From an uncultured Thermoleophilia bacterium (GTDB taxonomy: Bacteria > Actinomycetota > Thermoleophilia > UBA2241): 64,000 nt of DNA. The notes below the pieces were generated by a model. The model searched no databases and was not told the DNA's origin. It worked only from the letters and a program-made list of their open reading frames with translations. This document shows positions 245 through 37,839 of this stretch, one piece after another; the stretch's first letter is position 1; the number at the start of each line of letters is the position of its first letter. A program made the position numbers and the translations under genes. The stretch covers positions 17,699 to 81,698 of the forward strand of contig CAVOGK010000040.1 in the NCBI GenBank assembly GCA_963695395.1. Direction: 5' to 3'.

Positions 245-1555
245 CTACGCGAGCTCGTTGTCGATGCTCTCGAGGACCTCGTCGATGATGGCGATGCCCT
301 CGGTCACCTGGCTCTCGGTGATGATCAGCGGCGGGCCGACGAACAGCAGGTTCGCCATGACGTTGGTGCTCAACCCGCGCTCGAGCAGTCGCCGGTGGAC
401 GCTTCCCGCCAGCGCGGGAGACAGAGGCTCCCTGGTCGCGCGGTCGGCGACGAGGTCGAGGCAGAAGAACAGCCCCGTGCCGCGCACGTCGCCCACGCAG
501 CGGCGCCTGGCCTTGACCTCTTCCAGCTGAGGCCTCACCACGTCTCCCAGCCTGCGGGCGTTCTCGATCAGCCCTTCCTCGTGCAGGACGCGGAGCACGG
601 CGCTCGCCGTGCCGCAGGCGAGCGGGTGGGCGCTGTACGTCAGGCCCACGTACAGCATCTCGTGGTCCAGCTTCTCCATGATCCGGTCCGAGACGGCGAC
701 GCAGCCCAGCGGGACGTACCCGCAGGTGAGCCCCTTGGCCATGGTGATCATGTCGGGCACGACGCCGTCGTAGTGGTTGATGGCGAACCACTCACCGGTG
801 CGGCCGAGGCCCACCATCACCTCGTCCAGGATCAGCAAGACGCCGTGCTGGTCGCAGATCTCGCGCAGACGCTCGTAGTAGCCCGCGGGGGGCGCGAAGA
901 ACCCCGCTCCGCCCGTGTGGGTCTCCACCAGCACGGCGGCGACGGTCTTGGGCGACTCCCAGCGGATGATCTCGTCGACGTGCTCCGCGCAGCGCAGGCC
1001 GCAGTCTGGATGCGTCAGCCCGAACGGGCAGCGGTAGCAGAAGGGATCGAGGAAGTGGACGACGCCGGGGATGCCGGGCTCGACCGGCGGGCGGCGGAAG
1101 TCGCCGGTGAGGGTGATGGCGCCGTAGGTGGCCCCGTGATAGGAGCGGTACTTGGCGAGGATCTTGGACTTGCCTGTGTAGGCGCGCGCGATCTTCACGG
1201 CGTTCTCGTTGGCGTCGGCGCCGGCGGTGGTGAAGAAGAAGCGGTCGAGGTCGCCCGGCGTGACCGCGGCGAGGTCCTGGCCAAGCCTGGACCGCGACTC
1301 GCAGGCCCAGTCCGCACGCGCGTAACAGATCTTCTCCGCCTCGTCCTTGATCGCCTGGATCACCATGGGATGCTGGTGGCCGATGGAGAGGTTGACGAGG
1401 CCGGAGGAGAAGTCGAGGTACCGGTTGCCGTCACCGTCCCAGAAGTACACCCCTTCGCCCCGCTCGAGGACCGGGGGCCTGATGTCCGCCTGGACCGACC
1501 AGCTGTGGATGATGTGCCTTCTGTCGAGGGTCTTGATGGCTTCTTGCGACAACAT
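245..1555 (-). CDS. Class-III PLP-dependent aminotransferase (omega-amino acid / taurine:pyruvate-type)
   Basis: 436-aa ORF with typical class-III blocks: GHQHPMVIQAI, FFTTAGADANENAVKIAR, LILDEVMVGLGRTGEWFA and MITMAKGLT (Schiff-base Lys). Confidence 0.9.
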   Translation of the reverse strand: MLSQEAIKTLDRRHIIHSWSVQADIRPPVLERGEGVYFWDGDGNRYLDFSSGLVNLSIGHQHPMVIQAIKDEAEKICYARADWACESRSRLGQDLAAVTPGDLDRFFFTTAGADANENAVKIARAYTGKSKILAKYRSYHGATYGAITLTGDFRRPPVEPGIPGVVHFLDPFCYRCPFGLTHPDCGLRCAEHVDEIIRWESPKTVAAVLVETHTGGAGFFAPPAGYYERLREICDQHGVLLILDEVMVGLGRTGEWFAINHYDGVVPDMITMAKGLTCGYVPLGCVAVSDRIMEKLDHEMLYVGLTYSAHPLACGTASAVLRVLHEEGLIENARRLGDVVRPQLEEVKARRRCVGDVRGTGLFFCLDLVADRATREPLSPALAGSVHRRLLERGLSTNVMANLLFVGPPLIITESQVTEGIAIIDEVLESIDNELA

Positions 1556-1648: not shown

Positions 1649-3124
1649 TCACGCCTGTCCGGCGACGAGTCCGGCGATGATCTCCTGGACCTCGGAGCGA
1701 GTCGCATCGGAGACCGGCGGCGGCTCGTGCGCAGCCAGAGCCGCGCGAGCTTGCTCGCGCGCGCGCTCCACGAGATCAGGCTTGGTCTGCCCGCTCCAGG
1801 CGTAGCGCGACTGACGGTCGAACAACCTCGCCTGGGACCGCTCCCGCATGTGCCGCGAGGTGTGCTTGTGGCTGAGGTACTGACCTCCGGGGCCCACCTC
1901 CTCGATCACGTCGAGAGCGAGCTGCTCGTCGGTGAGAGGGATGCCGCCCAGGATCGCGCGGATCATGCGCGCGCAGTCCACGTCGAGCATGAACTTGGCG
2001 TAGTCGAAGGTGAGGCCGAACTCGAGCGCGCCGAGGCCGTTGATGACGTTGGCGCCGGCGAGGGCGGCCAGCAGCCCGTTCATGGCGCCCTCGTAGCCCA
2101 TCTGGGCGTCGGCGACCTTGCTGCCGCTCGGGAACGCCGACACCAGATTAGGGAGGCCGTAGTACTGCGCGAGCTTCGTCGACGCCGCGTCGATCATGCC
2201 CATCTCGGGAGCGCCGTAGGCGTGGTTGCCGGTCTTGAGGTCCATCATGGCGCTCGAGTTGGCGTAGACGACGCGCGTGCCGCGACGCACCAGCTGCGCG
2301 AGGACGAGAGCGCTCAGGAACTCCACGTTGGTGCACACCACGGAGCCGGCCACGGTGACCGGCCCGGTGGCGCCGCCCACGATCGCCGGAGCGCACACGA
2401 TGCCGGCGCCGTCCAGCTTGGCCGACGCGATGGTCATCTCGGCGCAGTCCCTGCCCATCTTGAGCGGGCTCACGGGGGCGACGATGGAGGTGAAGATCGG
2501 CCGGCGCGCGAACTCCGCGGCGCCGCCGACGTGCGCGAAGGCGATGCGGGCGATGGCGGAGAAGTTGGCGGCGTCGCCGGGTCCGATGAAGACATGCTTG
2601 CCGGTGTTGGCGAAGAGAGACTCGGCGTTGAACACCGGGTGGAGGCCCGGCGGCGCGTCCAGGGAGGCGACCGGGCGATGCATCACGCCCACCTCGTCCA
2701 GGCTGTCGCACAGCCGGGTGATGTCCGCGCTGTCCTGCTGGGTCGTCGGCCGCAAGGTACCGTCCGCCAGGTCGACGATCTGGACCAGCTCGCCCATCGG
2801 AGCGAATGTCACGCGGTGGGGGTCCATCGAGTAGTCCGACTCCGGGCTTCTCCCCTTGAGCACCACGGGGCGGGCCGCCGAGCGGATGCACTCCTCGACC
2901 ACGGATGCGGGGACCTTGACCAGAGCATCGGCCCCCTGCCGCTCCACGCGCGCTCCGGCCGACGCGAAGATCTCGAATGCCTCCTCGCTCGCCTCGACGA
3001 CGACGCCGGTGTTCTCGAAGACCTCGAGGCTGGCCTCGTGGAGGCGGTCCAGATCGTCCGGGGTGAACGCACTCAGACCCCAGCCGCTGGTCTCCCACAC
3101 ACCGTCTCTTGGTGACCTGTTCAC
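1649..3124 (-). CDS. MttB-superfamily (trimethylamine-type) substrate:corrinoid methyltransferase, non-pyrrolysine member
   Basis: Uninterrupted 491-aa ORF with full-length resemblance to COG5598/MttB proteins (GANVINGLGALEFGLTFDYAKFMLD, EVGPGGQYLSHKHT). No in-frame TAG. Confidence 0.88.
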   Translation of the reverse strand: MNRSPRDGVWETSGWGLSAFTPDDLDRLHEASLEVFENTGVVVEASEEAFEIFASAGARVERQGADALVKVPASVVEECIRSAARPVVLKGRSPESDYSMDPHRVTFAPMGELVQIVDLADGTLRPTTQQDSADITRLCDSLDEVGVMHRPVASLDAPPGLHPVFNAESLFANTGKHVFIGPGDAANFSAIARIAFAHVGGAAEFARRPIFTSIVAPVSPLKMGRDCAEMTIASAKLDGAGIVCAPAIVGGATGPVTVAGSVVCTNVEFLSALVLAQLVRRGTRVVYANSSAMMDLKTGNHAYGAPEMGMIDAASTKLAQYYGLPNLVSAFPSGSKVADAQMGYEGAMNGLLAALAGANVINGLGALEFGLTFDYAKFMLDVDCARMIRAILGGIPLTDEQLALDVIEEVGPGGQYLSHKHTSRHMRERSQARLFDRQSRYAWSGQTKPDLVERAREQARAALAAHEPPPVSDATRSEVQEIIAGLVAGQA

Positions 3125-3140
3125 AGCACCATCCCGTCAG

Positions 3141-4514
3141 CTAGAACTTGAACCGGACGCCGTATGCGGCCAGGTCCTTGCGAGCCTTGTCGTAGAGTGC
3201 CTGATGCTCGGCGGTGGGTTTCAGGGTCTTCATGTCGTAGCACTCCCAGAACTTGAGCCCCCTGGGCGCCCCGGTCAACTGGTCTTCGTAGTGCGTCATG
3301 ATCTGCTTGACGAGCTGGTCCGCCTCCGCGCGCGTCATTCCCAGCACGGAGTGCGCAACGAGCGAGGACCAGCGCCCGTTCATCGGCGTGATGTGATCCA
3401 TCACGGCGTTGCCCGGCGAGCCGCCGGTGGGTCCTACCGAGCTGCCCGAGACGACGTGCGCGATCACCGGCGCGGCCGCCTCGTAAGGCTGCATCTCGGC
3501 GCCCGGGCCGGAGGCGACCAGCGCCGATATCTGCAGGGGGAAGTGGCTGTTGCGCGAGATCGCCTGGGCGCTGGCGCTCATGCCCCAGATGACCCCCCGG
3601 CTCGTGCTGCACGACGTGCGCATGTCGATGGAGAAGTTCAGCTGGATGGAGCCACGGAAGACGAGCATCGAGTGCAGGTGGTAGGCCACGTTGGCGACGG
3701 CCATGCCCTCGGGGCCGCCGCAGTAGCCGCCCACCATGGGGCACGTCTCCGCGACCACGTGGCCACCCAGGCTGATGACGTAGGCGACCTCGTTCAGCCG
3801 CTCCCAGCTGGCCTTCATCTCGGCCAGCGGCCCGATGTTCCAGCCGTCCGACGGCCGCATGCCGAAGGCGCTGCCGGCGATCTTGCCCGTGTCCGACACG
3901 GCCGTGGCAATAGAGTTCTGCACGGGCATCCCCGGCCGTCCGGCCCGCCGCAGGCCCTCGCGCGTGAGGACCGTGCTCTTGATGCAGGCGAGGATCTCCA
4001 GAGGCGTGCCCGCGCGGACCATCGACCCGTGGTAGTTGGCCAGCGAGGGCGCCGTGACGCCGTCGCCCAGGGGGATCTCGCCGGTGGCTTGCACGAAGGC
4101 CTCGAACACCTCCTCGCTGGAGACGGGCGTGCCGCCCGCCCCCACGTAGCACCAGGGTGGGATCTCGCTCTCGGGTCGCCGGGAGGGGTAGGCCTTGGCG
4201 TCCTTGCCCTCGCCGAACACGGGTCCGCGCGGCGCCGTCGCCAGCGCTTCGCGGATCTCCGCCTCGGTGAACTGGATGATGCGGCTGGTGTCCACGCAGT
4301 AGGTGCCGACCTCCTGGTAGAACTCCAGGCCGGCCCGGAACAGCCGATCGGCGAACTCGTCGTCGGAGGGCACCACGACCTGCGGGTCGTAGCGGATCTC
4401 GTACTTCTTCAGGATCCGGCGCAGCGCGGGAACGAAGACCTTGAGGTCGTAGTCCCTCTCCGGCACCAGAGGGCCGGTCATGGCGCGGTCGACGACTTCC
4501 TCGAAGGAGATCAT
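3141..4514 (-). CDS. MtmB-like (monomethylamine methyltransferase family) protein lacking pyrrolysine
   Basis: Start at MISFEEVV (ATG 4514, ATGA overlap with the upstream stop) gives 457 aa plus stop, about the length I recall for MtmB (~458 aa). Blocks recalled from Methanosarcina MtmB: LFRAGLEFYQEVGTYCVDTSRIIQFTEAEI, AGRPGMPVQ (MtmB has AGRPGMGV-Pyl) and the C-terminal FWECYDMKTLKPTAEHQALYDKARKDL. The ORF-track start at 4619 adds an Arg-rich, non-native-looking leader. Confidence 0.85.
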   Translation of the reverse strand: MISFEEVVDRAMTGPLVPERDYDLKVFVPALRRILKKYEIRYDPQVVVPSDDEFADRLFRAGLEFYQEVGTYCVDTSRIIQFTEAEIREALATAPRGPVFGEGKDAKAYPSRRPESEIPPWCYVGAGGTPVSSEEVFEAFVQATGEIPLGDGVTAPSLANYHGSMVRAGTPLEILACIKSTVLTREGLRRAGRPGMPVQNSIATAVSDTGKIAGSAFGMRPSDGWNIGPLAEMKASWERLNEVAYVISLGGHVVAETCPMVGGYCGGPEGMAVANVAYHLHSMLVFRGSIQLNFSIDMRTSCSTSRGVIWGMSASAQAISRNSHFPLQISALVASGPGAEMQPYEAAAPVIAHVVSGSSVGPTGGSPGNAVMDHITPMNGRWSSLVAHSVLGMTRAEADQLVKQIMTHYEDQLTGAPRGLKFWECYDMKTLKPTAEHQALYDKARKDLAAYGVRFKF

Positions 4515-5186
4515 CGGCCGGCCTCGACAGCCGTCGTGGCCTCCACATGCGCGAGCGCGAGGTCCACGGCGTCCGCCGCCGTCTGCCCGTAGCCGTCGGC
4601 GCCGATCTCCTCGGCCCATCCGGCGGTCGTCGGGCCTCCGCCCACCATCACGTAGTAGTCAGCCCTGCTTCCCCGGGCCTCCAGGTACTGGATGACGTCC
4701 TGCTGCTGCGCCATCGTGGTGGTCATGAGCGCCGAGAGGGCGATGATGTCCGCCTTCGCCTTCTCGGCCGCCTCGACGAACCCGGCCGCCGGTACATCGC
4801 TGCCGAGGTCGATCACCTCGAAGCCCGCCGTCTGCAGCATCGTTGCCACGATGCTCTTGCCGAGGGAGTGCACGTCGCCCTTGACCGAGCCGAGGACGAC
4901 CTTGGCCTTGGCCTCGCCCCCTCGCCCCTGGGCGGCGAGCAGCGGGCCCAGGAGGTCCATGCCCTCCTGCCAAGCGTCGGCTGCCATCATCATCTCGGGC
5001 AGATACACCTCAGAGCGCTGGAACTGCTCGCCGACCTCCCGGAGCCCCGGGATCATGCCGTCGTCCAGGAGAGCGCCGGGGTCCGCGCCTTCGTCCAGCC
5101 CCGCTGGATCAAAGGCCGCACTTCGTCGAACCCCCATCGACGAATGCCGCGCGGATGCGCTCGACGGCGCTGGGCCTGTCAGTCAT
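4511..5186 (-). CDS. B12-binding corrinoid protein (MtmC/MttC/MtgC-like); N-terminal cap split over three frames as assembled
   Basis: DxHxxG...SxL...GG signature: GDVHSLGKS, ALSALMTTT, VMVGGGP. The cap-helix sequence MTDRPSAVERIRAAFVDGG (frame from ATG 5186), FDEVRPLIQRG (second frame) and LDEGADPGALLDDGMIPGL (ORF-track frame) only joins if one base is added in each of the C-runs 5131-5135 and 5099-5102. Confidence 0.8.
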
Positions 5187-5246: not shown

Positions 5247-5684
5247 TCAGTGGACGTAGGGCACGTGGAGGTTCTCGCTGCCGAAGACCACGAAGGTCTC
5301 GCAGTAGCTCACGCGTTCGACGGTGCTGACCTCGTCGCGGAAGAACTCGAGGAGGCCGAAGTCCGGGGCGAAGAGCACCTGCAGGATCAGGTGGAAGCGC
5401 CCGGTGACCGCCGCCACAGAGATCACGCCGCGCAGAGCGCTGAACTCTTTCGCCTTGGCCATGATGTCCATGGTGTCCAGGCTGACACCGATGTAGACCA
5501 GCTGGTGCTGCGGCAGTCGCCCCGGGTCGACGAGCGCGGTGATCTCCATGCCCCCGTCGTCCAGCAGGGCCTTGGCACGCGAGCGGACGGTGTTCTCCGA
5601 CAGCGAGAGCTCCTGGGCGATCTCGCGGTACGACCTGCGGCCGTCCTTGAGCAAGCGCACGAGCTCCAGGTTCTCTTCCGTCAT
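5247..5684 (-). CDS. Lrp/AsnC-family transcriptional regulator
   Basis: MTEENLELVRLLKDGRRSYREIAQELSLSENTVRSRAKALL is the HTH, followed by an RAM/AsnC_trans_reg-like C-terminal domain. The internal Met at 5684 is preferred over the ORF-track start at 5738. Confidence 0.85.
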   Translation of the reverse strand: MTEENLELVRLLKDGRRSYREIAQELSLSENTVRSRAKALLDDGGMEITALVDPGRLPQHQLVYIGVSLDTMDIMAKAKEFSALRGVISVAAVTGRFHLILQVLFAPDFGLLEFFRDEVSTVERVSYCETFVVFGSENLHVPYVH

Positions 5685-5800
5685 CACCACGCGACCCCCT
5701 GAGACAGCCTTCTGATGAATTCCGCAGTCAAGGTACATTCCAGTTAGCTATCAGTCAACCATCTACCAGAAGATTGCGCGATACAGCATAAGTAAGCCTC
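5685..5800 (-). promoter_or_regulatory. AT-richer upstream region of the AsnC/methyltransferase operon (candidate promoter/operator)
   Basis: Locally AT-enriched tract (ttctgatgaattccgcagtcaaggtacattccagttagctatcagtcaaccatctaccagaagattgcgcgatacagcataagtaag) in otherwise very GC-rich DNA, directly upstream of the first gene. No specific box identified. Confidence 0.25.
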
Positions 5801-8754: not shown

Positions 8755-8805
8755 GTTGATGACGTGGCGCACATCGACGCGGCATAGGCAGGAGAGACTG
8801 CAAGG

Positions 8806-10053
8806 GTGACGGAATACCGGAAGGGAACCACGATGGAACAGTCGACAGTGAAAAACGCGAAGGATCCAGGCGACCCGCCACCCATGTCCGGATCTCCCTC
8901 GGGCGTCACCCAGATCGTCGTCACCACCGGCACCTTGTGGCGGGCCGTGGCCGTCATCCTCGCGACGCTCGCCGTCCTCTGGGCGCTGGACCAGGCACGC
9001 AGCCTCGCGACCATGCTCGTCATCTCGGTGTTCTTCGCCCTGGCGCTGGTGCCCGGCGTGAACCACCTGCACCAGAAGCGCGGCTGGCGGCGCGGCCTCG
9101 CGGTCGGGGTCATCTACCTTGCCGGCATCGTCCTCCTGTTGCTCCTCGTCGTCGTGCTCATCCCGGCGATCGCCACGCTCGGCAAGCAGATCGCCAGCGA
9201 CGGCAGCGGCTGGATGACCAGCCTCGACGGCTGGCTCGCGGACACCCTCGGCTTCCACCTCGTCGGCAGCCAGGCGTACAAGGACGGCGTGGTGACAGTC
9301 GGCGAGGTCCTCCAGCAGTGGGCGGACAAGCTGCTCCCGGCAGCCGGCCAGGCCGTCTCAACCGGCGCCTCGCTCGTCTTCAACATCGCCACGATCGCCC
9401 TGTTCACGTTCTACCTCGCCGCCGACTTCCCGCAGCTGCAGCGCTCGTTCCTCTCGTGGTTCCGGCCGGTCCACCAGGAACGCATGGGCTGGACCATCGA
9501 CCAGTCGGTGGCCGAGGTCGGCGGCTACCTCTACTCGCGGCTGCTGCTCACGCTCATCAACGGCCTCGGCTTCTTCGCCGTCATGGTCGCCGTCGGGGTG
9601 CCCGTCGGCCTGGCGATCCCGCTCGCCGTGTTCGGCGGCTTCGTCTCTGAGTTCATCCCCAGTGTGGGCACCTACATCGGGGCAGCGATCCCTGTGGTGC
9701 TCACGCTGGCACTGCGGGGCGTCGTGCCGGCGCTCATCGTCGTCGGCTACGCGGTGGTCTATCAGCAGATCGAGAACTACTGGCTGAGCCCGCGGATCAG
9801 CGCGAAGACGATGGAGCTCAACGGCGGCCTCGCGTTCGGCGCCGCGCTCGCCGGCGGCGCCCTGTTCGGCCCCATGGGGGCCTTCATGGCGCTGCCCGTC
9901 GCGGCGCTGATCGTCTCGTTCGTCTCGAACTACCGGCACAGCCACGAGGTCGTCTACGTGTCGCGGTACGGCGAACCCCGGGAAGGACAGGACGCCACGG
10001 GTGCTGCTGCAGGGACGGGTGATACCGGGAGCGGAGCCAGCGCGGAAGCCTAG
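8806..10053 (+). CDS. AI-2E family (PerM/UPF0118) transporter
   Basis: 415-aa polytopic ORF with the typical late conserved block FGGFVSEFIPSVGTYIGAAIPVVL...YQQIENYWLSPRI. Confidence 0.85.
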   Translation: MTEYRKGTTMEQSTVKNAKDPGDPPPMSGSPSGVTQIVVTTGTLWRAVAVILATLAVLWALDQARSLATMLVISVFFALALVPGVNHLHQKRGWRRGLAVGVIYLAGIVLLLLLVVVLIPAIATLGKQIASDGSGWMTSLDGWLADTLGFHLVGSQAYKDGVVTVGEVLQQWADKLLPAAGQAVSTGASLVFNIATIALFTFYLAADFPQLQRSFLSWFRPVHQERMGWTIDQSVAEVGGYLYSRLLLTLINGLGFFAVMVAVGVPVGLAIPLAVFGGFVSEFIPSVGTYIGAAIPVVLTLALRGVVPALIVVGYAVVYQQIENYWLSPRISAKTMELNGGLAFGAALAGGALFGPMGAFMALPVAALIVSFVSNYRHSHEVVYVSRYGEPREGQDATGAAAGTGDTGSGASAEA

Positions 10054-10188: not shown

Positions 10189-10284
10189 ACGGGCGCGGAG
10201 GCGGCGCATGACGGCGGCGCCGGCGCCGCCCAATGATACGCTCTGCGGGACGGAGAGGGCAGTCCGAGACCGGAGAGGTGACGT

Positions 10285-11448
10285 GTGAGCGATCCCGACC
10301 CCGCGCCACACGCTGAACTCACGCCTCGTGAGTGGCGGACGTCCCAGATCATCCGTGTGACGGCGATCGCGACGCTCACCGTCCTCGTCATCGTGGGCAT
10401 GCTTCAGTTCCTCTTCCAGATCCGCACCATCGTGCTGTGGGCGCTCATCGGCGTGATCCTCGCGATCGCGCTGCAGCCCGCGGTCGGCTGGCTGGTGCGC
10501 CACCGCTGGAATCGCATCGTCGCGTCGCTGCTGGTCTCGTTCGCGACGATCGCCGTGCTCGTCGGCATCGTCATCGCCGTCGCGCTGCCCGTGATCCTCC
10601 AGTCGGACGACTTCATCCGCGCCTTGCCCGGGATCCTGGACAGCCTGCTCGGCACCGGGGGGGAGCTCAACTTCCTCGAGACGCGGTTCCACGTGATCGA
10701 GCGGGTCGCCCAGGTGACGCCGGAGCAGGTCACCAAGGTGATCCTCGGCAACCAGGAAACGATCGTCAGCGCCCTGACCAAGGCCGCCACGGTCGTCGCC
10801 GCGACGATCACCATCCTCACCATCATGGTGATGATGCTCATCGAAGGACCGCGCGCCTGGCGCTCGATCCTCGCGGCGATGGTGGTGGACGAGCGCCGCT
10901 GGGCGGAGCGGATCGGCGAGAACTTCCTGCGCGCGACCGGCGGCTACGTGCGCGGCAACCTCGCGATCAGCTTCGTCGCCGGCATCGCTTCGTACGTCGT
11001 GCTCAGGATCCTGGGCGTGCCGTACGCTGAGACGCTCGCGGTGCTCGTCGCCGTGCTGGACGTCATCCCGCTGGTCGGCGCCACCATCGGAGCCATCATC
11101 GTGTGCATCGTCGGCTTCGCCACAGGAGGGGTCGTCGACGGCGTCGTGCTGGTCGTCTTCTTCGTCGTCTACCAGCAGTTCGAGAACAACGTGCTGCAGA
11201 TCATGGTGTACAGCAAGACGGTGGCGCTGAGCCCGCTGATCGTGTTCCTCGCGGCTCTGGTCGGGGCCGCACTCGGGGGGATCGTCGGCGTGCTGCTCGC
11301 AATCCCGCTCACGTCGGCCGGCTGGGTGCTCGCCGGCGACCTCATCGCCCTCCGGCACTCCCGGGCGGAGCGACAAGGCGGACGCAAGTCGATGGTCAAG
11401 GAGCCTCCGCCCGAGTGCGGGCCGGAGGCCGAGGCCGAAGAAGCCTGA
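10285..11448 (+). CDS. AI-2E family (PerM/UPF0118) transporter, second paralogue
   Basis: 387-aa polytopic ORF (GTG start) with LDVIPLVGATIGAIIV...YQQFENNVLQIMVYSK. Confidence 0.85.
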   Translation: MSDPDPAPHAELTPREWRTSQIIRVTAIATLTVLVIVGMLQFLFQIRTIVLWALIGVILAIALQPAVGWLVRHRWNRIVASLLVSFATIAVLVGIVIAVALPVILQSDDFIRALPGILDSLLGTGGELNFLETRFHVIERVAQVTPEQVTKVILGNQETIVSALTKAATVVAATITILTIMVMMLIEGPRAWRSILAAMVVDERRWAERIGENFLRATGGYVRGNLAISFVAGIASYVVLRILGVPYAETLAVLVAVLDVIPLVGATIGAIIVCIVGFATGGVVDGVVLVVFFVVYQQFENNVLQIMVYSKTVALSPLIVFLAALVGAALGGIVGVLLAIPLTSAGWVLAGDLIALRHSRAERQGGRKSMVKEPPPECGPEAEAEEA

Positions 11449-11590: not shown

Positions 11591-12538
11591 TCACACGCTC
11601 TTCAGGCGCTCGACGAGCGCCGGCACCACCTCGTAGAGGTCGCCGACCAGGCCGTAGTCGGCCATGGCGAAGATCGGCGCCTCCTTGTCCTTGTTGACGG
11701 CGGCGATCAGCTTGGCGCCGGCCACGCCGACGGTGTGCTGGATCTGGCCGGAGACGCCGACGCTCAGGTAGAGGTCCGGCGCCGTCTTGGCGCCGGAGAG
11801 GCCGATGATGCGATCCTCGCCGAGCCATTCGAAGTCGGCGAGGCTCTTGGTGCAGCCGACGACGGCGCCGAGGGCGCCCGCGAGCTCGTCGCCGAGGGCG
11901 AGGTCCTCGCGGGCGTTGAAGCCGCGCCCGACACCGACGATGAGCGGCGCCGCGTCGAGATTGACGTGGTCGCCTTCCTTGGCGCGCCTGTCGACGACCT
12001 TAACCGTCGAGCTGACGTTGAGACTTGGCGTCTGGACCCCTCCCGCCCCGGCCGTCGCGCCCTCGGCGCTGAACGTCTTGGGCATGACGGCGAACACCTT
12101 GACGGGCGTCGCGATCTTCTCGCGCGCCACGGTGGCGCCGCCGAAGGCGTAGCGTGCGGCGACGAGCTCGCCGCCCTCCGCCGCGAGGCTGTTGACGTCG
12201 GAGACGCAGCCCGCGCCGAGCTTCTGCGCCAGCCGCGGCGCCGTCTCCTTGCCGCGGCGCGTCGAACCGACGAGCACGACGCTCGCGCCGGCCTGCTCGG
12301 CGATCTGCGCCAGGCCGGCGGCCACGGCGTCGGCCGGCCAGCCCTCGAAGGCGGCGTCTTCGCTCACGTACACGGTGTCGGCGCCGGCCGCGGCGAGCTC
12401 GCTCGCCGCGGTTCCGGCTCCCGGGCCCAGCGCCACGGCGCTCACGCCGAGGCCGAGGGCCGCACCCAGTTCCTTACCACCGGCGACCAGTTCGCGGGCG
12501 GTATCGAGTCTCTCGCTGTAGACGAGCAGCTCAGCCAT
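11591..12538 (-). CDS. etfA: Electron transfer flavoprotein alpha subunit (FixB-type)
   Basis: Start at MAELLVYSE (ATG 12538), 315 aa. C-terminal FAD-binding block LYLSVGVSGQIQHTVGVAGAKLIAAVNKDKEAPIF. Confidence 0.9.
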   Translation of the reverse strand: MAELLVYSERLDTARELVAGGKELGAALGLGVSAVALGPGAGTAASELAAAGADTVYVSEDAAFEGWPADAVAAGLAQIAEQAGASVVLVGSTRRGKETAPRLAQKLGAGCVSDVNSLAAEGGELVAARYAFGGATVAREKIATPVKVFAVMPKTFSAEGATAGAGGVQTPSLNVSSTVKVVDRRAKEGDHVNLDAAPLIVGVGRGFNAREDLALGDELAGALGAVVGCTKSLADFEWLGEDRIIGLSGAKTAPDLYLSVGVSGQIQHTVGVAGAKLIAAVNKDKEAPIFAMADYGLVGDLYEVVPALVERLKSV

Positions 12539-12540
12539 CG

Positions 12541-13314
12541 TTACCTCCCCAGGACGCCTTCTTTGATGAGGGCGTTGACGAAGGCGTCGGCCTGCTCGGC
12601 CGCGCTCCCGTCGAACAGGATGTGCTTGCGGTCCTGCTCCTCCGCCAGGTTGCTGACGATCTCGCGCACGGGCGCCGGCGCGTCCAGCCCGAGGTCGGCC
12701 AGCGACCACACCTGCAGCGGCTTGCTCTTGGCCTTCATGATCTGCATGAGGCCGGGGATGCGCGGCTCGTTGATCTCGCTGACCACGGTGACGGCCGCCG
12801 GCAGCGGCGCCTCGAGCGTCTCGATCATGTCGTCCATGCTGCGCTCGCAGCGCACCACGCCGTTCGCGGACTCGACCTTGCGCGCGTAGCCGATCTGCGG
12901 CAGGCCGAGCAGCTCGGCGACGCGAGGGCCGACCTGACCGGTGTAGTTGTCGCTCGAGCCCTCGCCGAAGAGCAGCAGGTCGCAGGCGCCGAGCTTCTCG
13001 ACGGCGGCGGCGAGCGCGACGGCCACCGCCGCCTGGTCGGGCTCGGCCAGCGCCGGATCGTCGATGACGACGGCCTCGTCGGCGCCCATGGCGAGCGCGA
13101 CCTTGATGTCTTCGGCCGCCTTGCGGTTGCCCTCGGCGAGGCACAGGGCGACGACCTTGCCGCCCACGGCGTCGCGCAGCACGACGGCCGCCTCGAGGGC
13201 GTTCTTCTCGAGATCGCCGATCTTGTACGGCACGGCCTCGGTGACCGCCTCGCGATTCTTGATGCGGACCATCTGGAGGTCCGGGTTGGTCTTCACGCAG
13301 ACGACGATGTCCAC
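12541..13314 (-). CDS. etfB: Electron transfer flavoprotein beta subunit (FixA-type)
   Basis: 257 aa, MDIVVCVKTNPD...GEGSSDNYTGQVGPRVAELLGLPQ. Two-nt gap to etfA. Confidence 0.9.
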   Translation of the reverse strand: MDIVVCVKTNPDLQMVRIKNREAVTEAVPYKIGDLEKNALEAAVVLRDAVGGKVVALCLAEGNRKAAEDIKVALAMGADEAVVIDDPALAEPDQAAVAVALAAAVEKLGACDLLLFGEGSSDNYTGQVGPRVAELLGLPQIGYARKVESANGVVRCERSMDDMIETLEAPLPAAVTVVSEINEPRIPGLMQIMKAKSKPLQVWSLADLGLDAPAPVREIVSNLAEEQDRKHILFDGSAAEQADAFVNALIKEGVLGR

Positions 13315-13343
13315 GCTTCACCCCTTTCGTCACGGTCGCCCGT

Positions 13344-13625
13344 TCAGCTCATCCGGTACTGGACCCCGAAGGGGCCGCTCGGGTACTTCCACGTGAGGGC
13401 GCGGTGATCGCAGCAGATCATGCAGGTGCCGCACTCGAGGCAGCCCTCCCAGTTGACGGTCATGCGGCCCTGGTCGTCGCGCTCGTAGAGGTCGGCCGGG
13501 CACACGTAGACGCAGGCCTCGTCCTTGCAGACGGCCTTGCACACGTCGGTGTCGATGACGATGTGCGGCTCCTTGTCGAGCTTGAAGACGTCGAGGCCGA
13601 GCTTGGCGTCGATCTTCATCGGCAT
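13344..13625 (-). CDS. fixX: FixX-type ferredoxin-like protein
   Basis: 93 aa, MPMKIDAKLGLDVFKLD...CKAVCKDEACVYVCPADLY...CLECGTCMICC. GGAGG RBS. It is the last 93 codons of the composite 13344-16619 ORF. Confidence 0.85.
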   Translation of the reverse strand: MPMKIDAKLGLDVFKLDKEPHIVIDTDVCKAVCKDEACVYVCPADLYERDDQGRMTVNWEGCLECGTCMICCDHRALTWKYPSGPFGVQYRMS

Positions 13626-13636
13626 GGCTCCTCCCC

Positions 13637-14927
13637 TCAGATCTTCCGCATCGACCAGGCGTCCTTGACGGTCGCCACGTTCATGAAGTCGCGCCTCGCA
13701 CCCCGCCAGGCCTTCTTGAAGAGGCCGGCCTGCGGCCGCTCGTCGATGGTGTAGATGCTCTCGAGCAGCCGAGAGACGGCCTTCGGGTAGTGCGTGAACA
13801 GGCGCGGGTTCTCCATGAAGTTCGGGATGGCGCGCGCCGTCTCGAGGTCCTTGAGCACGAAGCTCTCGCGCAGGGACGCCTCGTAGCTCGCGAGGCCGGC
13901 GGCCGAGAAGTCGCCGGCCGCCTTTGCCCTCTTGACCGCCTCGGCGGCGTAGTAGCCGCTGGCGATGGCGAAGTCCATGCCGCGCACGGTGACGAGAGCG
14001 TTGAGACTGAGCCCGGCGGTGTCGCCGGCGACCAGGTAGCCGTCGCCGGCGAGCCTGGGCACCTGGCTGATGCCGCCCTCCGGGATGGCGTGCGCCGAGT
14101 ACTCGGCGACTGTGCCGCCGGCGACCAGCGGCCGGATCTGGGGCAGCTCCTTGAACTCGTCGAGGAGCTGCCAGCTCTCCGTGCCGTCGCGCCGGCCGCG
14201 CAGCGCCTCCATCCCCACGACCATGCCGAGCGAGATGCTCTCCTTGTTGGTGTAGAGGAAGCCGCCGCCCATCATGCCCCTGGTGCACTCGCCCATGAAG
14301 AGCTGGGCGGCGCCCTCGCCGGGGTTGAGGTGCCAGCGGTCCTCGATCACGCCCGCCGGCAGCTCGATGATCTCCTTGTAGCCGAGCGCGTGGTGCTTCG
14401 CCTGCGGCTCGGCCGCGAGCCCGGCCGCGCTGCTGAGCAGCCGCAGCACGCCCTCGGCGACGATGACGACGCTGCGCGCCGATCTCGTCGCCGCCGGCGC
14501 GGATGCCGATGATGCGGCCGTCCTTGCGCAGCAGCTCGTCGACCTTCATGTTGGGCACGACCATCGCGCCCTTCTCGGTGACCTTCTCGGCGAGCCACTG
14601 GTCGAGCTTGGCGCGCACGACCGTGTAGCTCTGCGGCCGCTCGCCGGTGAACCGGTCCGAGGCGATCTCGACGGTCGTGTGGGCGCCGGGAGCCATCATC
14701 GTGACCAGCTCGCGCGCCACGGGGCGCTCGAAGGGCGCCTCGTCCCACAGCTCCGGGTAGAGGCCGCGGATGGGCTTCACGTACAGGCGCCCGCCGGTGA
14801 CGTTCTTGGCGCCCGAGTAGTCGCCGCGCTCGAGGACCATGACCTCGACGCCGGCCGACGCCAGGCCGTAGGCCGCGGAGAGGCCGGCGAGGCCGCCACC
14901 GACGACGATGCATTCGACTGTTTCCAT
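13637..14927 (-). CDS. fixC: FixC-type ETF:quinone oxidoreductase-like flavoprotein, one frame break as assembled
   Basis: N-terminal METVECIVVGGGLAGLSAAYGLA (FAD fold) in one frame down to GDEIGA. The continuation SVVIVAEGVLRLLSSAAGL...GYLVAGDTAG is in the frame of ORF 13637-14449. The span is 1291 nt, not a multiple of 3, and the break lies at ~14470-14480. Confidence 0.8.
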
Positions 14928-16186
14928 GTGGCGGCCTCCTCCCGGCCTTCGTCGCAATCCTTGAACGGGTTGTGCGTGTCGCCCCACTCGTCGCGGGCGA
15001 TGATGCCGCGCATGATCATCAGGCCGCCCTCGGCGCCGACCTCGTAGCTCATGACGCCGCGGAGCAGCATCTCGAGCGGCGTCTCCTTGGTGTAGCCGAA
15101 GGCGCCGTGGTACATCATCCCGTGGCGGGCGATGTCGTGGCACAGGGCCGGAGCGAGGCACTTGCAGGTGCTGATGACCTTGTTGATCTCCTTGCGGCCG
15201 AACTGACCTGGGCTGGTGTGCTCCTGGCCGATCATCCAGGCGCCGCGCAGCAGGTTCAGCTTGAGCATGTCGAGCTGCATCCAGTCGTCGGCCATCTCGA
15301 AGCTGATGCCCTCGTTCTTGCCCAGCGGCTTGCCGAAGGTCGTGCGCTGCGCGGTGTACTCGCCGCTGATCTCGAGCGCCTTCTCGGCGCCGCCGAGGCA
15401 GGCCGCGACGACGAGCACGCGGGCGGCGTTGAAGCCGTCCATGTTGACGTAGAAGCCCTTGCCCTCTTCGCCGAGGACGTACTTGCGCGGCAGCTCGACG
15501 TCCTTGTAGATCCAGCCGCCGGTGCTGAGGCCCATGCGGCCCATGTCCTTGTACGTGGTGTAGGTGATGCCGTGCAGGTGGGCGGGCACCCAGATGAAGG
15601 TCATGCCCTTGTGACCCTGCGCGGGGTCGGTCTTGACCAGGGTGCAGTGACCGCTCGGCGGACCCCACTTGGCGCACTCCTTCGGGCCGGAGACGTAGGC
15701 CTTCTCGCCGTTCATGACGAAGGCCTGCTTCTCCTCGTTCCACGGGGCGATCGTCTTGATGGCGCCGAGGTCGGAGCCGCCGCCGGGCTCGGTGGTGTTG
15801 ATGCCGGCGAACGCCTTGCCGGCGGCCACGGCCGGGAGCACTTCCTGCTTCAGCTCGTCGGTGCCGTACCGGTTGATGATGTACGACCAGCCGATGGTGA
15901 GCAGCGTGTAGACGGGCGTGCTCATGCTGAGGTCGGCGCGGGCGATCTCGTGCACGGTGATCATCGCGTAGATGAGGCGCTCGTCGTCGGGGAGCGGCAT
16001 GCCGCCGTACTCCTCCGGGATGGTCACGCCGAACATGCCCAGCTCGGCCATGCCGGCGGTGATGTCGTCCGGGATGCCGTCCTCGGCCTCGTCGATGGCG
16101 CGGGCGCGCGGCTCGAGGTTCTTGGTCAGCCACTCGCGGATGGCCTGACGGTACATCTCCTGCTCGGTGGTGTAGCGGAAGTCCAT
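14777..16186 (-). CDS. Acyl-CoA dehydrogenase family protein (3' end uncertain)
   Basis: The ACAD fold is recognisable throughout (AGINTTEPGGGSDLGAIKT, catalytic-base region VMSYEVGAEGG). The last ~50 codons are Ser/Ala/Arg-rich and overlap the fixC start by 151 nt. Confidence 0.82.
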   Translation of the reverse strand: MDFRYTTEQEMYRQAIREWLTKNLEPRARAIDEAEDGIPDDITAGMAELGMFGVTIPEEYGGMPLPDDERLIYAMITVHEIARADLSMSTPVYTLLTIGWSYIINRYGTDELKQEVLPAVAAGKAFAGINTTEPGGGSDLGAIKTIAPWNEEKQAFVMNGEKAYVSGPKECAKWGPPSGHCTLVKTDPAQGHKGMTFIWVPAHLHGITYTTYKDMGRMGLSTGGWIYKDVELPRKYVLGEEGKGFYVNMDGFNAARVLVVAACLGGAEKALEISGEYTAQRTTFGKPLGKNEGISFEMADDWMQLDMLKLNLLRGAWMIGQEHTSPGQFGRKEINKVISTCKCLAPALCHDIARHGMMYHGAFGYTKETPLEMLLRGVMSYEVGAEGGLMIMRGIIARDEWGDTHNPFKDCDEGREEAATWKQSNASSSVAASPASPRPTAWRRPASRSWSSSAATTRAPRTSPAGACT

Positions 16187-16277
16187 GCAGTTCCCTCCTC
16201 AGGGGACCAGTGTTTGCCGTGGTCTCGGGCCGGAGGAGCCGCGAAGCGGCGGGCCCGGCCGGCCTCGGATGTCCCCG

Positions 16278-23536: not shown

Positions 23537-24673
<1,137 letters not shown>

Positions 24674-24863
24674 TGACTCGTTCAGCTCCTTGGTTGCAGC
24701 GGTACGGGGAGCGGGTGGCGCTGTCCTGCCCCGCTCCCGCCTCCGCGTTCGTCGTCGTGGTCGTGGCCGGCAACCGTTGCCGGATGGTCCTCTCGCGCGC
24801 CTTTCGGCTCGATCAGCGGTGTGCCTGCGGCACCCCGCTCGCTCGTCGATCCGCCCGCAGCGC

Positions 24864-25996
<1,133 letters not shown>

Positions 25997-26000
<4 letters not shown>

Positions 26001-27820
26001 CGCTCTTCGGTGTCGTCGTCGACCGGGATGGCGCGGAGCGCTTCGCGCAGGCTCCGTCGTACCGACTCGAGCCTCGCCAGCTCCTCACCCTGCCTCCCAG
26101 CTTCGTCAGTCTTCATCGTGACCTTGAGCCGCGCGATGAGTCGGCCCACCTGCGCCTCCTGGAGACGCAGGAACAACTCCTTGATGACGGTCGCGGTGAA
26201 CCGCTCCCGCCCGGCCCGCACGATCACCTCGGCGAACGCCTCGGCGCCGTCGCCCGCGGGCCCGAACGCCTCCGCCGATTGCGGGGTATTCCCCGCCTCA
26301 TCGGCGGTCAATCTCGCCTTGACACGACGGAGCGCGGCGCGCGTCTCCGCCGTGGCGAAGAAGCCCTCGTCGACGCCCGCGAGCGCCTCCCGTCCGGGCC
26401 CGGGCTGCGCCAGGCAGCCGGCCAGGAACCTGACCTCGAGCTCGTGGGCGCCGCCTGAAGCGACCGCGGGTCCACCGCCCCGCGAAGGCGTGCGCTCGCT
26501 GCCGGCAGCACCCGTGACGGGGCGTCCGCTGCCGGAGAGCAGGTAGCGCACGCTCTCCGCGGAGAGCTGCAGCTTGTCAGCGACATACCGCAGCTCGTCG
26601 TCGCGTTCCATCGGCGTCGCTGCTTCGGAGAGGACCTCCCTGAGTCGCGCGAACGCGCGTGCCCTTCCGTCGGGCTTGTCGAGGTCGTGAGTAGCGAGCG
26701 CCAAGCGGACGTGGAATTGTAGCAGCGTCTGCGCCTCGGCGGCAAGCGCGCGGAACCCGTCTCCCCCAGCCCCGGCGAGGACGAAGTCGGCCGGGTCCAG
26801 ACCGTCGGGAACGCGCACGACGTGCAGCGAGAGATTCATGCGACGACCGAGCGAGAGCGCACGCTGCATGGCGCCGATACCGGCCGCGTCGGCGTCGAAG
26901 CACAGGTAGAGGTTGCGCGTGAGGCGCGAGAGGCGGCCCAGCTGCTGCTCCGTGAGGGCCGTCCCCATGCTCGCGACCACGTTGGCGACGCCCGCCTGAG
27001 CGAGGGCCAGGACGTCGGTGTAGCCCTCGACGACGTAGACGCGGTCGTCCCGGCGGGCGGCATCCTTTGCCTTGTCCAGGCCGAACAGAGCCTCGCTCTT
27101 GTGGTAGAGCGAGGTCTCCGGCGAGTTGAGGTACTTGGGCTTCTCGTCGCCGAGGGTGCGAGCGCCGAAGCCCAGCGTGCGCCCGCGCTCGTCGCCGAGC
27201 GGGAACATGATGCGCCCGCGGAAGCGGTCGTACGGGCGGCCGCTCTTGCCGGGGATCACGAGTCCGGCGTCGAGGAGGTCCTGGTCGCTGAAGCCGGTCT
27301 TGAGGGCGGCATCGCGCAGCGTGCCCCAGCCGGGCCTGCTGAAGCCGACGTGAAAGGCGCGGCAGGTCTCGTCCAGGAGGCCGCGCCCCGCGAGGTAGTC
27401 GCGGGCGGGCGCGGCTGCGGGAGCGTCCCAGAGGACGCGCTCGAAGTAGTCCCCAGCCTTCGCGAGCACCGCCCTCAGGCGCTCGCGGCGCCGGCGCTCA
27501 GCGTCGCCGCGGGCGCTCGACTCCTCGTACTCGAGCATGATCCCGTACTTGTCCGCGAGGTACTCGACGGCCTCGGGAAAATCCATGTTCTCCTTGGCCA
27601 TGACGAAGCCGATGAGATTGCCGCCGGCGCCGCAGCCGAAGCAGTAGTACAGCTTCTCGCCGGGGTTCACCGAGAACGACGGCGTGCGCTCCTCGTGGAA
27701 GGGGCAGCGGCCGCTGAAGTTGGCGCCGGCCTTCTTGAGGTCGGTGTACTGGCCGACGACCTCGACCATGTCGGCGGCGGCGACCACCTGCTCGATGCTG
27801 CTCTGCGCGATGAGGGCCAC
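25997..27820 (-). CDS. dnaG: DNA primase
   Basis: 607 aa, GTG start. CHC2 zinc finger [31 protein letters not shown], and a TOPRIM block [13 protein letters not shown]. Confidence 0.92.
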
Positions 27821-27821
27821 G

Positions 27822-28253
27822 TCAGCGTCCCCCGTCGTTGCGGGCGTCGTGCGCGGCGCGGTCGCGCCGCCGGCGCGCCTCGCGCTGCTCGCGGCGGCGC
27901 AGCGCCTCGATGGTCGCCTGCTGCTCGGCGGCCACGACCCGCATGGTGGCTCCCGTGCGGCGGCGCTCCTTCTTGCCGGGGCGCGGTGAGCGTTCGTGAG
28001 GCTGCCACGTGTAGCCGATGTGGTCGAACGACCACACGAGCAGGACGGTGAGCGCCGTCATCCACGCCAGGTAGAAGAGGGCGAAGAGAGCCCACGCCTC
28101 GGGCGTCGTCGTGTCTTTGGCCGGGGGAGCGCCCCAGGGCTGGATCTGCGGCAGACGCAGCCAGCCGAGGCCGAACGTGACGACGGCGGGCACGACGGCC
28201 AGGATGAGCAGGCCGACGGTGACGAGCACGATCAGCAGCCGGCGACGGTCCAC
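27822..28253 (-). CDS. Hypothetical small membrane protein with a basic coiled C-terminus
   Basis: GTG at 28253 about 10 nt after GGAGG. Two TM helices (LLIVLVTVGLLILAVVPAVV, ALFALFYLAWMTALTVLLVW), then an Arg/Glu-rich tail. Stop is 1 nt before the dnaG start. Confidence 0.5.
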   Translation of the reverse strand: MDRRRLLIVLVTVGLLILAVVPAVVTFGLGWLRLPQIQPWGAPPAKDTTTPEAWALFALFYLAWMTALTVLLVWSFDHIGYTWQPHERSPRPGKKERRRTGATMRVVAAEQQATIEALRRREQREARRRRDRAAHDARNDGGR

Positions 28254-35839: not shown

Positions 35840-36748
35840 TCAGCGCTCGTCACTCGCGCCGCGGCGGCGCGCGTAGACCACGCGCGGGATGCCGGCGAGG
35901 TCGCCGCGCGCCTCCGGCGCCTCGAACGCGCCGGCGGCGCGAATGATCGCGGCGACGTCCCGGGCCTGACCGGCGCCGACCTCGAGCGCGAGCGTACCCC
36001 CGGCGCGCAGCAGCAGGGCGGCGCCGGGAATGAGGCGGCGATAGACGTCGAGACCGTCGAGCCCTCCGAAGAGCGCGAGCCGTGGCTCGTAGTCACGCAC
36101 GTTGGGCTCCAGCGCCTCGTACTCCGCGGCCGGGATGTACGGTGGGTTGGAGACGATCAGGTCGAACGTCCGCAGGGCGACGTCGGCGAAGAGATCGGAG
36201 AGGATGAATTCGACGCGGCGCTGAAAGCCGAGCCGAGCCGCGTTGCGGCGCGCCACCGCCAGCGCCTCCTGGTCGACGTCGGTCGCGACGACACGCACGA
36301 AGGGGTCCTCGGCGGCCAGCGCCAGCGCGACGCAGCCCGAGCCGGTACCGACATCCAGAGCGAGCGGCTCGCCCTCCGGCCCCGGGCCCGCGAGCGGAAT
36401 GGCGGCGAGCGCTTCCAGGGCGACGTCGACAAGTGTCTCGGTGTCCGCGCGCGGGATGAGCACGGCGGGCGTCACCGCGACGTCGATGGTGCGAAACGCG
36501 CGAAAGCCGAGGATGTAGGCGACCGGCTCACGCGCCTCTCGCCGCGTCAGCAGGCTCTCGAAGCGCGCGGCTTCGCCGGTGTCCAGGGTACGTCCGGGCT
36601 CACGGAGAAGCTCGGCGCGCGGGCAGTCCAGCGTGCGTGCGAGCAGCAGCTCCGCATCGAGACGCGGCGAGCGCGACCCGCTTGCCCGCAGCCGCTGCAC
36701 GGCCGCGCGAAGCGCGTCACCCACGCTCGCCGGCACGGCCACGGTCAC
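35840..36748 (-). CDS. prmC: Release-factor glutamine N5-methyltransferase
   Basis: 302 aa. SAM motif LDVGTGSGCVALAL and catalytic IVSNPPYI. Overlaps the prfA stop by 4 nt. Confidence 0.88.
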   Translation of the reverse strand: MTVAVPASVGDALRAAVQRLRASGSRSPRLDAELLLARTLDCPRAELLREPGRTLDTGEAARFESLLTRREAREPVAYILGFRAFRTIDVAVTPAVLIPRADTETLVDVALEALAAIPLAGPGPEGEPLALDVGTGSGCVALALAAEDPFVRVVATDVDQEALAVARRNAARLGFQRRVEFILSDLFADVALRTFDLIVSNPPYIPAAEYEALEPNVRDYEPRLALFGGLDGLDVYRRLIPGAALLLRAGGTLALEVGAGQARDVAAIIRAAGAFEAPEARGDLAGIPRVVYARRRGASDER

Positions 36749-37830: not shown

Positions 37831-37839
37831 GCGGCTAGC

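Follow-up and report, generated by a model that had tools for sequence, protein, structure and literature searches.

The 64-kb stretch of DNA analyzed here (the window), which comes from a Thermoleophilia-like actinobacterium, carries on its minus strand a gene (3141..4514; ATG at 4514, stop codon TAG at 3141-3143) that encodes a 457-residue methyltransferase of the MtmB family (PF05369). The protein is almost certainly a pyrrolysine (Pyl)-free MtmB-family enzyme that has a glutamine, Gln199, at the site occupied by pyrrolysine in the MtmB of Methanosarcina barkeri. The glutamine is likely to have derived from a methionine rather than from a UAG codon, and the enzyme would transfer a methyl group from an N-methylated amine to a corrinoid protein encoded directly upstream. 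The explanation as a whole, in which identity, origin and function are blended, was judged to be correct on balance.

Glutamine at the pyrrolysine site of MtmB

A preliminary description of the sequence had placed a glutamine codon at the Pyl site of MtmB, and this assignment was borne out. The letters ctg at 3918..3920 of the plus strand read CAG on the coding strand and form codon 199 of the gene. The surrounding peptide is AGRPGMPV-Q-NSIATAV (residues 191-199 = 3918-3944), in which the motif AGRPGMPV (residues 191-198; 3921..3944, minus strand) contains the family-wide conserved AGRPG that anchors the alignment. When the PDB was searched with phmmer, AGRPGMPV-Q paired without a gap with AGRPGMGV-X-GPETSLS of M. 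barkeri MtmB1 (1L2Q/1NTH), where X is residue 202, and the pairing stayed gapless over a long run of residues toward the N terminus. Residue 202 of MtmB is the pyrrolysine Pyl202 (PMC9842639). Gln199 and X also shared one column in two independent MAFFT alignments. The motif AGRPGMGV-Pyl and the numbering of Pyl202 in the preliminary description were thus correct.

The assignment to the family was equally clear. The protein matched the Pfam MtmB profile, PF05369, with an E-value of 7e-90 over profile positions 5-449 of 450, and in the phmmer search of the PDB it matched only M. barkeri MtmB1 (1L2Q/1NTH, 1TV2), with an E-value of ~6e-54 and 29% identity. No NCBIfam family and no NCBIfam equivalog matched it. 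An exact-sequence look-up of the window protein returned no record, and a 96% identical protein, P0001, stood in for it. An AlphaFold2 model built from 116 sequences had a predicted local distance difference test (pLDDT) score of 94.1 and a predicted template modeling (pTM) score of 0.94. Foldseek superposed this model on the MtmB crystal structures (1L2Q/1NTH/1TV2) over 453 columns with a template modeling (TM) score of 0.94 and a root-mean-square deviation of 1.7-1.8 Å, and residues 198-199 were located on a β-strand of the TIM barrel. The structural comparison that had been proposed as a check on Gln199, together with the gapless alignment, therefore places this residue at the Pyl site. Both Pfam and Foldseek show the full-length PF05369 domain and fold that are required of an MtmB (EC 2.1.1.248), but the in-frame UAG at the Pyl202 position, the defining feature of MtmB proper, is replaced by CAG. 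A sense codon in this column of a full-length PF05369 protein and an adjacent gene for a B12-binding corrinoid protein with a DxHxxG motif, both of which are present, are the marks of the Pyl-free MtmB homologues.

Nine independent metagenome assemblies had the CAG at codon 199, which excludes a sequencing or assembly error. The codon was retained in orthologues even where the synonymous divergence (dS) exceeded 1. The ratio of nonsynonymous to synonymous divergence (dN/dS) was 0.09-0.13 in comparisons with seven orthologues, all of which have an intact 457-codon frame, and the ATG at 4514 overlaps the stop codon of the upstream corrinoid protein gene (ATGA), so that the two genes are translationally coupled. 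The gene is functional and under purifying selection. The only argument for a pseudogene, an inactive relic or an error of assembly at codon 199 is that the residue which is catalytic in the archetype has been lost; given the selection, the intact frames, the identical codon in the nine assemblies, the high-confidence model and the coupling to the corrinoid protein gene, this interpretation can for practical purposes be set aside.

In MtmB the imine of pyrrolysine forms a covalent adduct with methylammonium and presents the methyl group to Co(I), which a glutamine is unable to do. Gln199 offers no electrophilic pyrroline imine and therefore the mechanism of MtmB cannot operate as such, in agreement with the preliminary description. 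A substrate other than monomethylamine (MMA) is likely but not proven, since the Pyl-free homologue MtqB retains a low activity with MMA (PMC13044021).

Origin of the glutamine codon and use of TAG

The residue in the Pyl column was surveyed in the Pyl-free homologues, as had been recommended. Among the 120 closest database homologues (49-96% identity) methionine was dominant, with 105 sequences, followed by glutamine (9), leucine (4), phenylalanine (1) and threonine (1). All of the glutamine-bearing sequences in this set were at least 68% identical to the window protein, and the group near the window is a small clade of Thermoleophilia plus some Anaerolineae. The codon was read in 112 homologues from 80 GTDB genome loci: ATG occurred 79 times and CAG 11 times, the other codons, apart from one CAA, specified Leu, Cys, Val, Phe, Gly or His, and TAG was found in none of the 112. 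Nine of the 11 CAG codons belonged to the clade of the window itself. Three distant sequences with glutamine (Bathyarchaeia/Acidoferrum), one of which uses CAA, have a different motif. On the scale of the family, in which 1081 clusters at 50% identity matched with E <= 1e-3, the column is hypervariable: 19 residue types were present among 148 representatives of the 50%-identity clusters (L 28, V 15, G 15, I 14, M 9 and Q only 2), while AGRPG was conserved.

In a neighbor-joining (NJ) tree rooted on MtmB1, the glutamine clade was monophyletic and was located within methionine-bearing sisters. It consisted of the window protein, P0001, P0003-P0007 and P0009, with the leucine-bearing P0002 nested inside. 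The successive sister groups (13, 77, 5 and 12 sequences) had almost entirely methionine, always encoded by ATG in the GTDB loci, so that parsimony gives an ATG-encoded methionine as the ancestral residue; the conversion of ATG to CAG takes two nucleotide changes. The derivation of Gln199 from methionine rather than from UAG is accordingly considered probable. Two features of the tree weigh against this conclusion, namely that it is a simple NJ tree rooted on a single Pyl-containing MtmB and that it did not include the true Pyl-MtmBs, whose genes are split at TAG by gene callers.

The preliminary description had noted that CAG is one transition away from TAG and had offered two histories, the fixation of CAG in place of UAG or an ancestral Pyl-free state. 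Descent from a Pyl-encoding mtmB by a single transition draws some support, apart from the closeness of the two codons, from the gene that begins 16 nt downstream of the MtmB-like gene (1649..3124, minus strand). This gene encodes a Pyl-free, 491-residue methyltransferase of the MttB superfamily, in which Pro332 (CCG, 2129-2131) aligns with Pyl334 of M. barkeri MttB (7XCL). Its score of 507 bits on TIGR02369 is just below the cut-off of 525, and it retains a stretch (2032..2131, minus strand) that matches the full Rfam model PYLIS_3, the mttB pyrrolysine insertion sequence, with 43.3 bits (gathering score 38). By its sequence the MttB-like protein is unusually close to genuine Pyl-MttB, and the operon is thus somehow related to Pyl-type genes. 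The PYLIS_3 match opens exactly at the CCG codon of Pro332 that replaces the UAG of true mttB, in frame and without gaps, and is probably due to coding-sequence homology with Pyl-MttB and not to a functional element. For the MtmB-like gene, the evidence points the other way. The successive outgroups of the glutamine clade carry ATG, the protein is only 29% identical to Pyl-MtmB, the column is hypervariable throughout the family, and no Rfam PYLIS family matched the gene at E <= 1. Moreover, CAG accounts for 12 of the 13 glutamine codons of the gene and for 91% of those in the window; the proximity of CAG to TAG is uninformative because CAG is the default glutamine codon, as expected from the codon bias. 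A direct UAG-to-CAG transition is therefore very improbable. The other proposed history, a Pyl-free ancestor, fits the data as far back as they reach, and to that depth of sampling the sequences indicate a lineage that has been Pyl-free throughout.

The nearest relatives of the window protein were in metagenome-assembled genomes (MAGs) of Thermoleophilia (93-97% identity), and the orthologues in Anaerolineae MAGs were 80-82% identical. The G+C content was 69.5% in the window and 58-59% in the Anaerolineae MAGs with orthologues. This pattern of identity and composition suggests transfer between phyla.

TAG is an ordinary stop codon here. It terminates the MtmB-like gene in the window, in the Thermoleophilia orthologues L002-L005 and in the Anaerolineae orthologue L006 (two others end in TAA), and it terminates 6 of the 27 likely genes of the window, including the downstream aminotransferase gene. 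The window also encodes a peptide chain release factor of the RF1 type, with PVT and GGQ motifs (36745-37839, minus strand), beside a DUF1385 gene and thyX. No tRNA-Pyl was found in the 64 kb. Together, the TAG stops, RF1 and the lack of tRNA-Pyl in this stretch are suggestive but not decisive for the absence of the pyrrolysine machinery. ARAGORN called a 92-nt tRNA-Cys, with the anticodon at position 31, at 43971-44062 on the plus strand, inside overlapping long open reading frames; the Rfam tRNA model did not find it at the gathering score and the call is probably a false positive.

The operon and its possible function

The MtmB-like gene lies in an operon on the minus strand. At its head is an AsnC/Lrp-type regulator (5247..5738), which is conserved in the Thermoleophilia relatives, followed by the cognate corrinoid protein (4511..5137), with B12-binding_2 and B12-binding domains, directly upstream of the MtmB-like gene. 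The cobalt-ligand motif DxHxxG of the corrinoid protein has the sequence DVHSLG (4859-4876). This protein was called at 219 residues in relatives, and its true start may be slightly upstream of the call. The MtmB-like and MttB-like genes follow, and the last operon gene inside the window is a class-III (omega) aminotransferase (245..1555). No cobalamin riboswitch was found upstream of the operon. The best solved relative of the aminotransferase was taurine:2-oxoglutarate aminotransferase (6JIX), with 349 bits as compared to 266 for the next. The protein passed the NCBIfam subfamily PRK06062, which has no functional name.

Gene neighborhoods were examined in 80 loci. In 60 of these, a corrinoid protein gene was located on the same strand at a distance of no more than 500 nt. 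An MttB-like gene was present in 23 loci and a class-III aminotransferase in 27, from bacterial and archaeal phyla; among the 25 loci flanked on both sides by 5 kb of sequence or more, 11 had the aminotransferase. Aldehyde:ferredoxin oxidoreductase (AFOR) was encoded in nine loci and aldehyde dehydrogenase took its place in some, either one often following the aminotransferase. The corrinoid-MtmB(Q)-MttB-like module was present in most loci of the glutamine clade (L001-L006, L008 and L083-L085), with the exceptions of L007, which is cut at the contig end, and L009, in which no corrinoid protein gene was detected. Beyond the aminotransferase, the operon continues in relatives with a GLUCM-like protein, a pyridoxal phosphate enzyme of the MJ0158 family, AFOR, a DHDPS-family protein and a CCG/Fe-S protein. 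Other arrangements were corrinoid-MtmB-MtmB-corrinoid-MtmB-MtmB-aminotransferase-AFOR in an Anaerolineales MAG and corrinoid-MtmB-Aldedh-aminotransferase-PALP in a Chloroflexota MAG.

Sixteen positions separate the glutamine clade from the otherwise conserved consensus of the methionine clade: L109Y, F123Y, A129T, Y144T, A150G, S152G, I153V, M199Q, L219M, L261V, P295S, H297D, an inserted G361, E362P, K368G and P380G. About half of these (8-9) are located on or just after the barrel strands predicted in the AlphaFold2 model (122-125, 152-154, 198-199, 252-257, 290-293 and ~359-360). The active sites of TIM barrels are built from residues at such positions, and for this reason the substitutions may represent a remodeled substrate pocket whose specificity has changed relative to that of the methionine clade. 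A point against this view is that the pocket was assigned from the positions of predicted strands.

In the proposed mechanism, the MtmB-like enzyme would act as the MT1 and methylate the Co(I) form of the corrinoid protein whose gene lies directly upstream. The methyl donor would be an N-methylated amine on which the enzyme can act without a covalent Pyl adduct; instead of free MMA, it would be a compound with a quaternary or protonated methylammonium group attached to a larger backbone. Gln199 would be a hydrogen-bonding residue lining the pocket that helps to bind the substrate and is not a catalyst. The Pyl-free MttB-like enzyme would remove another methyl group from the same compound by way of the same corrinoid protein. 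The resulting primary amine would be deaminated by the class-III aminotransferase, and the aldehyde oxidized by the AFOR that is encoded further down the operon in relatives. Such a pathway of demethylation, transamination and aldehyde oxidation is plausible, although it falls slightly short of being probable. The best guess for the substrate, from the sequence of the aminotransferase, would be an N-methylated taurine or another N-methylated omega-amino acid; the N-methylated taurines are candidates because the best solved relative of the aminotransferase acts on taurine, and N-methylated γ-aminobutyric acid, β-alanine or a similar compound would fit equally well. The most specific version, in which the Gln-type MtmB and Pro-type MttB homologues share one corrinoid protein, strip a di- or trimethylated omega-amine (possibly an N-methylated taurine) and feed a Toa-like aminotransferase and a tungsten-type aldehyde oxidoreductase, is unlikely to hold in every part. 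If true, soil Thermoleophilia and Anaerolineae would have an anaerobic catabolic route that has not been described before. An MtmB-type enzyme would then, without pyrrolysine, demethylate an amine that is not quaternary but secondary or tertiary, with implications for the question of why pyrrolysine is needed at all.

Several observations weigh against the pathway. Its basis is gene neighborhood only, and the class-III gene near the operon in L083 is part of a heme operon, so that not every co-occurrence of an aminotransferase is meaningful. The window aminotransferase is only ~45% identical to the taurine enzyme, as read from the alignment, and a literature search on N-methyltaurine and corrinoid-dependent demethylation yielded no paper in which the compound is mentioned. 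Full demethylation of a trimethylammonium group by two methyltransferases would require one of them to act twice. Finally, MT2, the methyl acceptor enzyme, is not encoded in the operon, and neither a methylcorrinoid:tetrahydrofolate or methylcorrinoid:coenzyme M (CoM) methyltransferase nor a RamA-type activase was found within 10 kb of the operon in any Thermoleophilia relative, so that no methyl sink is evident.

The missing MT2 could be the MtmB-like protein itself. The methyl group of a quaternary amine would then be loaded onto the corrinoid protein by the MttB-like enzyme and passed from methyl-Co(III) to an acceptor by the MtmB-like protein. This arrangement would account for two methyltransferases of different families with one corrinoid protein in a tight operon that has no classical MT2 gene nearby, and the authors of a study on 'Candidatus Formimonas warabiya' called its dichloromethane-induced, non-Pyl MtmB-superfamily protein a likely MTII (PMC9768040). 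It is nevertheless improbable. Many relatives, for example L082, have a corrinoid protein and an MtmB-like protein without an MttB-like one, other relatives have two or four MtmB-like paralogues per operon, and both characterized members of the family, MtmB and MtqB, are MT1 enzymes (PMC13044021). It is quite improbable, too, that the protein is a genuine MMA:corrinoid methyltransferase that functions without pyrrolysine. Members of its cluster are so labeled in public records, and MtqB, which is Pyl-free, has an activity of 11 nmol/min/mg with MMA (PMC13044021). The label, however, is an over-reading of homology that was transferred from PF05369 and that no NCBIfam equivalog match backs. The rate of MtqB with MMA is below that with choline, 42 nmol/min/mg (PMC13044021), and the conserved association with genes for an omega-aminotransferase and an aldehyde oxidoreductase implies that the product is an organic amine, not ammonia. 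A role for the MtmB-like protein as an MT1 for a larger N-methylated amine thus remains the preferred interpretation.

The neighborhoods of the relatives had other features of note. Two Thermoleophilia MAGs (L084, 20435-21374; L085, 742-4352) encode a glycyl radical enzyme and its activase less than 10 kb away from the operon; the gene for the enzyme was absent from the window and from all other loci. The glycyl radical enzyme is most similar to choline trimethylamine-lyase (CutC), but a CutC-like link from choline to trimethylamine was rejected: the score was 742 bits as compared to the CutC cut-off of 1050, and the position of the gene was not conserved. In six Desulfobacterales loci (L024, L026, L028, L029, L033 and L034), MtmB-like and corrinoid protein genes were found near a creatinase/M24-like gene (8087-9280 in L029), a hint that the substrates of that subclade may be of the creatine or sarcosine type. 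In many Chloroflexota, Desulfobacterota and Bathyarchaeia loci (L017/L081, L046, L050 and others), MtmB-like paralogues occurred in tandem, with two to four copies per locus, mirroring the known expansions of the MttB superfamily.

Elsewhere in the window, two adjacent full-length sigma-70 paralogues of the primary type (regions 1.1 to 4; 23537-24931 and 24864-26084, minus strand) were located directly downstream of dnaG (25997-28057). A cluster at 11591-16198 (minus strand) encodes the α and β subunits of an electron transfer flavoprotein (ETF), an ETF-QO-like protein and an acyl-CoA dehydrogenase. A tRNA-Met is flanked by two genes for AI-2E family transporters (8788-10053 and 10282-11448).

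Comparison with known methyltransferases

Pyl-free MtmB homologues are already known, are largely uncharacterized and make up most of the large MtmB family. The window gene is an uncharacterized member or subclade of this class, not a new kind of system. Databases call these homologues monomethylamine methyltransferases, although only one of them has a known substrate, and the occurrence of such genes in metagenomes is no evidence of methylamine use or of pyrrolysine decoding. The present analysis adds that the Pyl column behaves as a hypervariable, specificity-type position in which methionine is dominant in this subfamily, that the glutamine variant is a derived state tied to a fixed module of MtmB-like, MttB-like and corrinoid proteins, and that the subfamily is repeatedly linked to omega-aminotransferases and aldehyde-oxidizing enzymes. 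Together, these points indicate where the substrates may be sought, namely among N-methylated amines whose backbone can be transaminated.

The window protein shares with M. barkeri MtmB1 (1L2Q, 1NTH, 1TV2) the Pfam family, the TIM-barrel fold, the AGRPGM motif and an adjacent gene for the cognate corrinoid protein. It differs in having a CAG-encoded glutamine in place of the UAG-encoded Pyl202 and in its low identity to MtmB1. Moreover, the host is a bacterium that uses TAG as a stop codon, also for the MtmB-like gene, and the operon contains an MttB-like gene and an aminotransferase instead of genes of the mtmC/mtmP/mtbA type.

A functional precedent is MtqB of Methanococcoides methylutens Q3c, the only biochemically characterized Pyl-free MtmB homologue, which acts on tetramethylammonium and choline; this first function for a Pyl-free member was published in 2026 (PMC13044021). 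Both enzymes are Pyl-free MtmB-family members paired with their own corrinoid protein, and MtqB shows that Pyl-free enzymes can be active MT1s on amines that need no Pyl adduct. The residues conserved in the pocket of MtqB include Met, Cys and aromatics (PMC13044021). As described, MtqB is archaeal, branches near the Pyl-MtmBs and feeds the methylation of CoM; the gene context here consists instead of the MttB-like protein, the aminotransferase and AFOR, and no methylcorrinoid:CoM methyltransferase (MtqA/MtbA) of the kind coupled to MtqB was found in the operon or within 10 kb in relatives. MtqB and the Pyl-free MttB-family relatives use substrates in which the nitrogen is already cationic (PMC13044021, PMC12155760).

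A bacterial counterpart is Ga0180325_111810 of 'Candidatus Formimonas warabiya' DCMF, a non-Pyl MtmB-superfamily protein that was reported in 2022 as the most induced on dichloromethane (PMC9768040). Like the window protein, it is a bacterial, Pyl-free MtmB-family protein with no assigned substrate, and it shows that the class was recognized earlier (PMC9768040). By the authors' account, it differs in its ~30% identity to other family members and in its physiological context (PMC9768040).

A parallel is provided by the MttB superfamily, which was first defined by a Pyl enzyme. Many of its members (MtgB, MtpB, MtcB, MtyB and MthB) are Pyl-free; they have a sense codon in place of the Pyl codon and transfer methyl groups from quaternary amines to a corrinoid protein (PMC13044021, PMC12155760, PMC8604678). 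The MttB superfamily is a separate family with no significant sequence similarity to MtmB, and its Pyl site is in a different structural location (PMC9842639). One of its Pyl-free members is nonetheless the immediate neighbor of the MtmB-like gene in the window.

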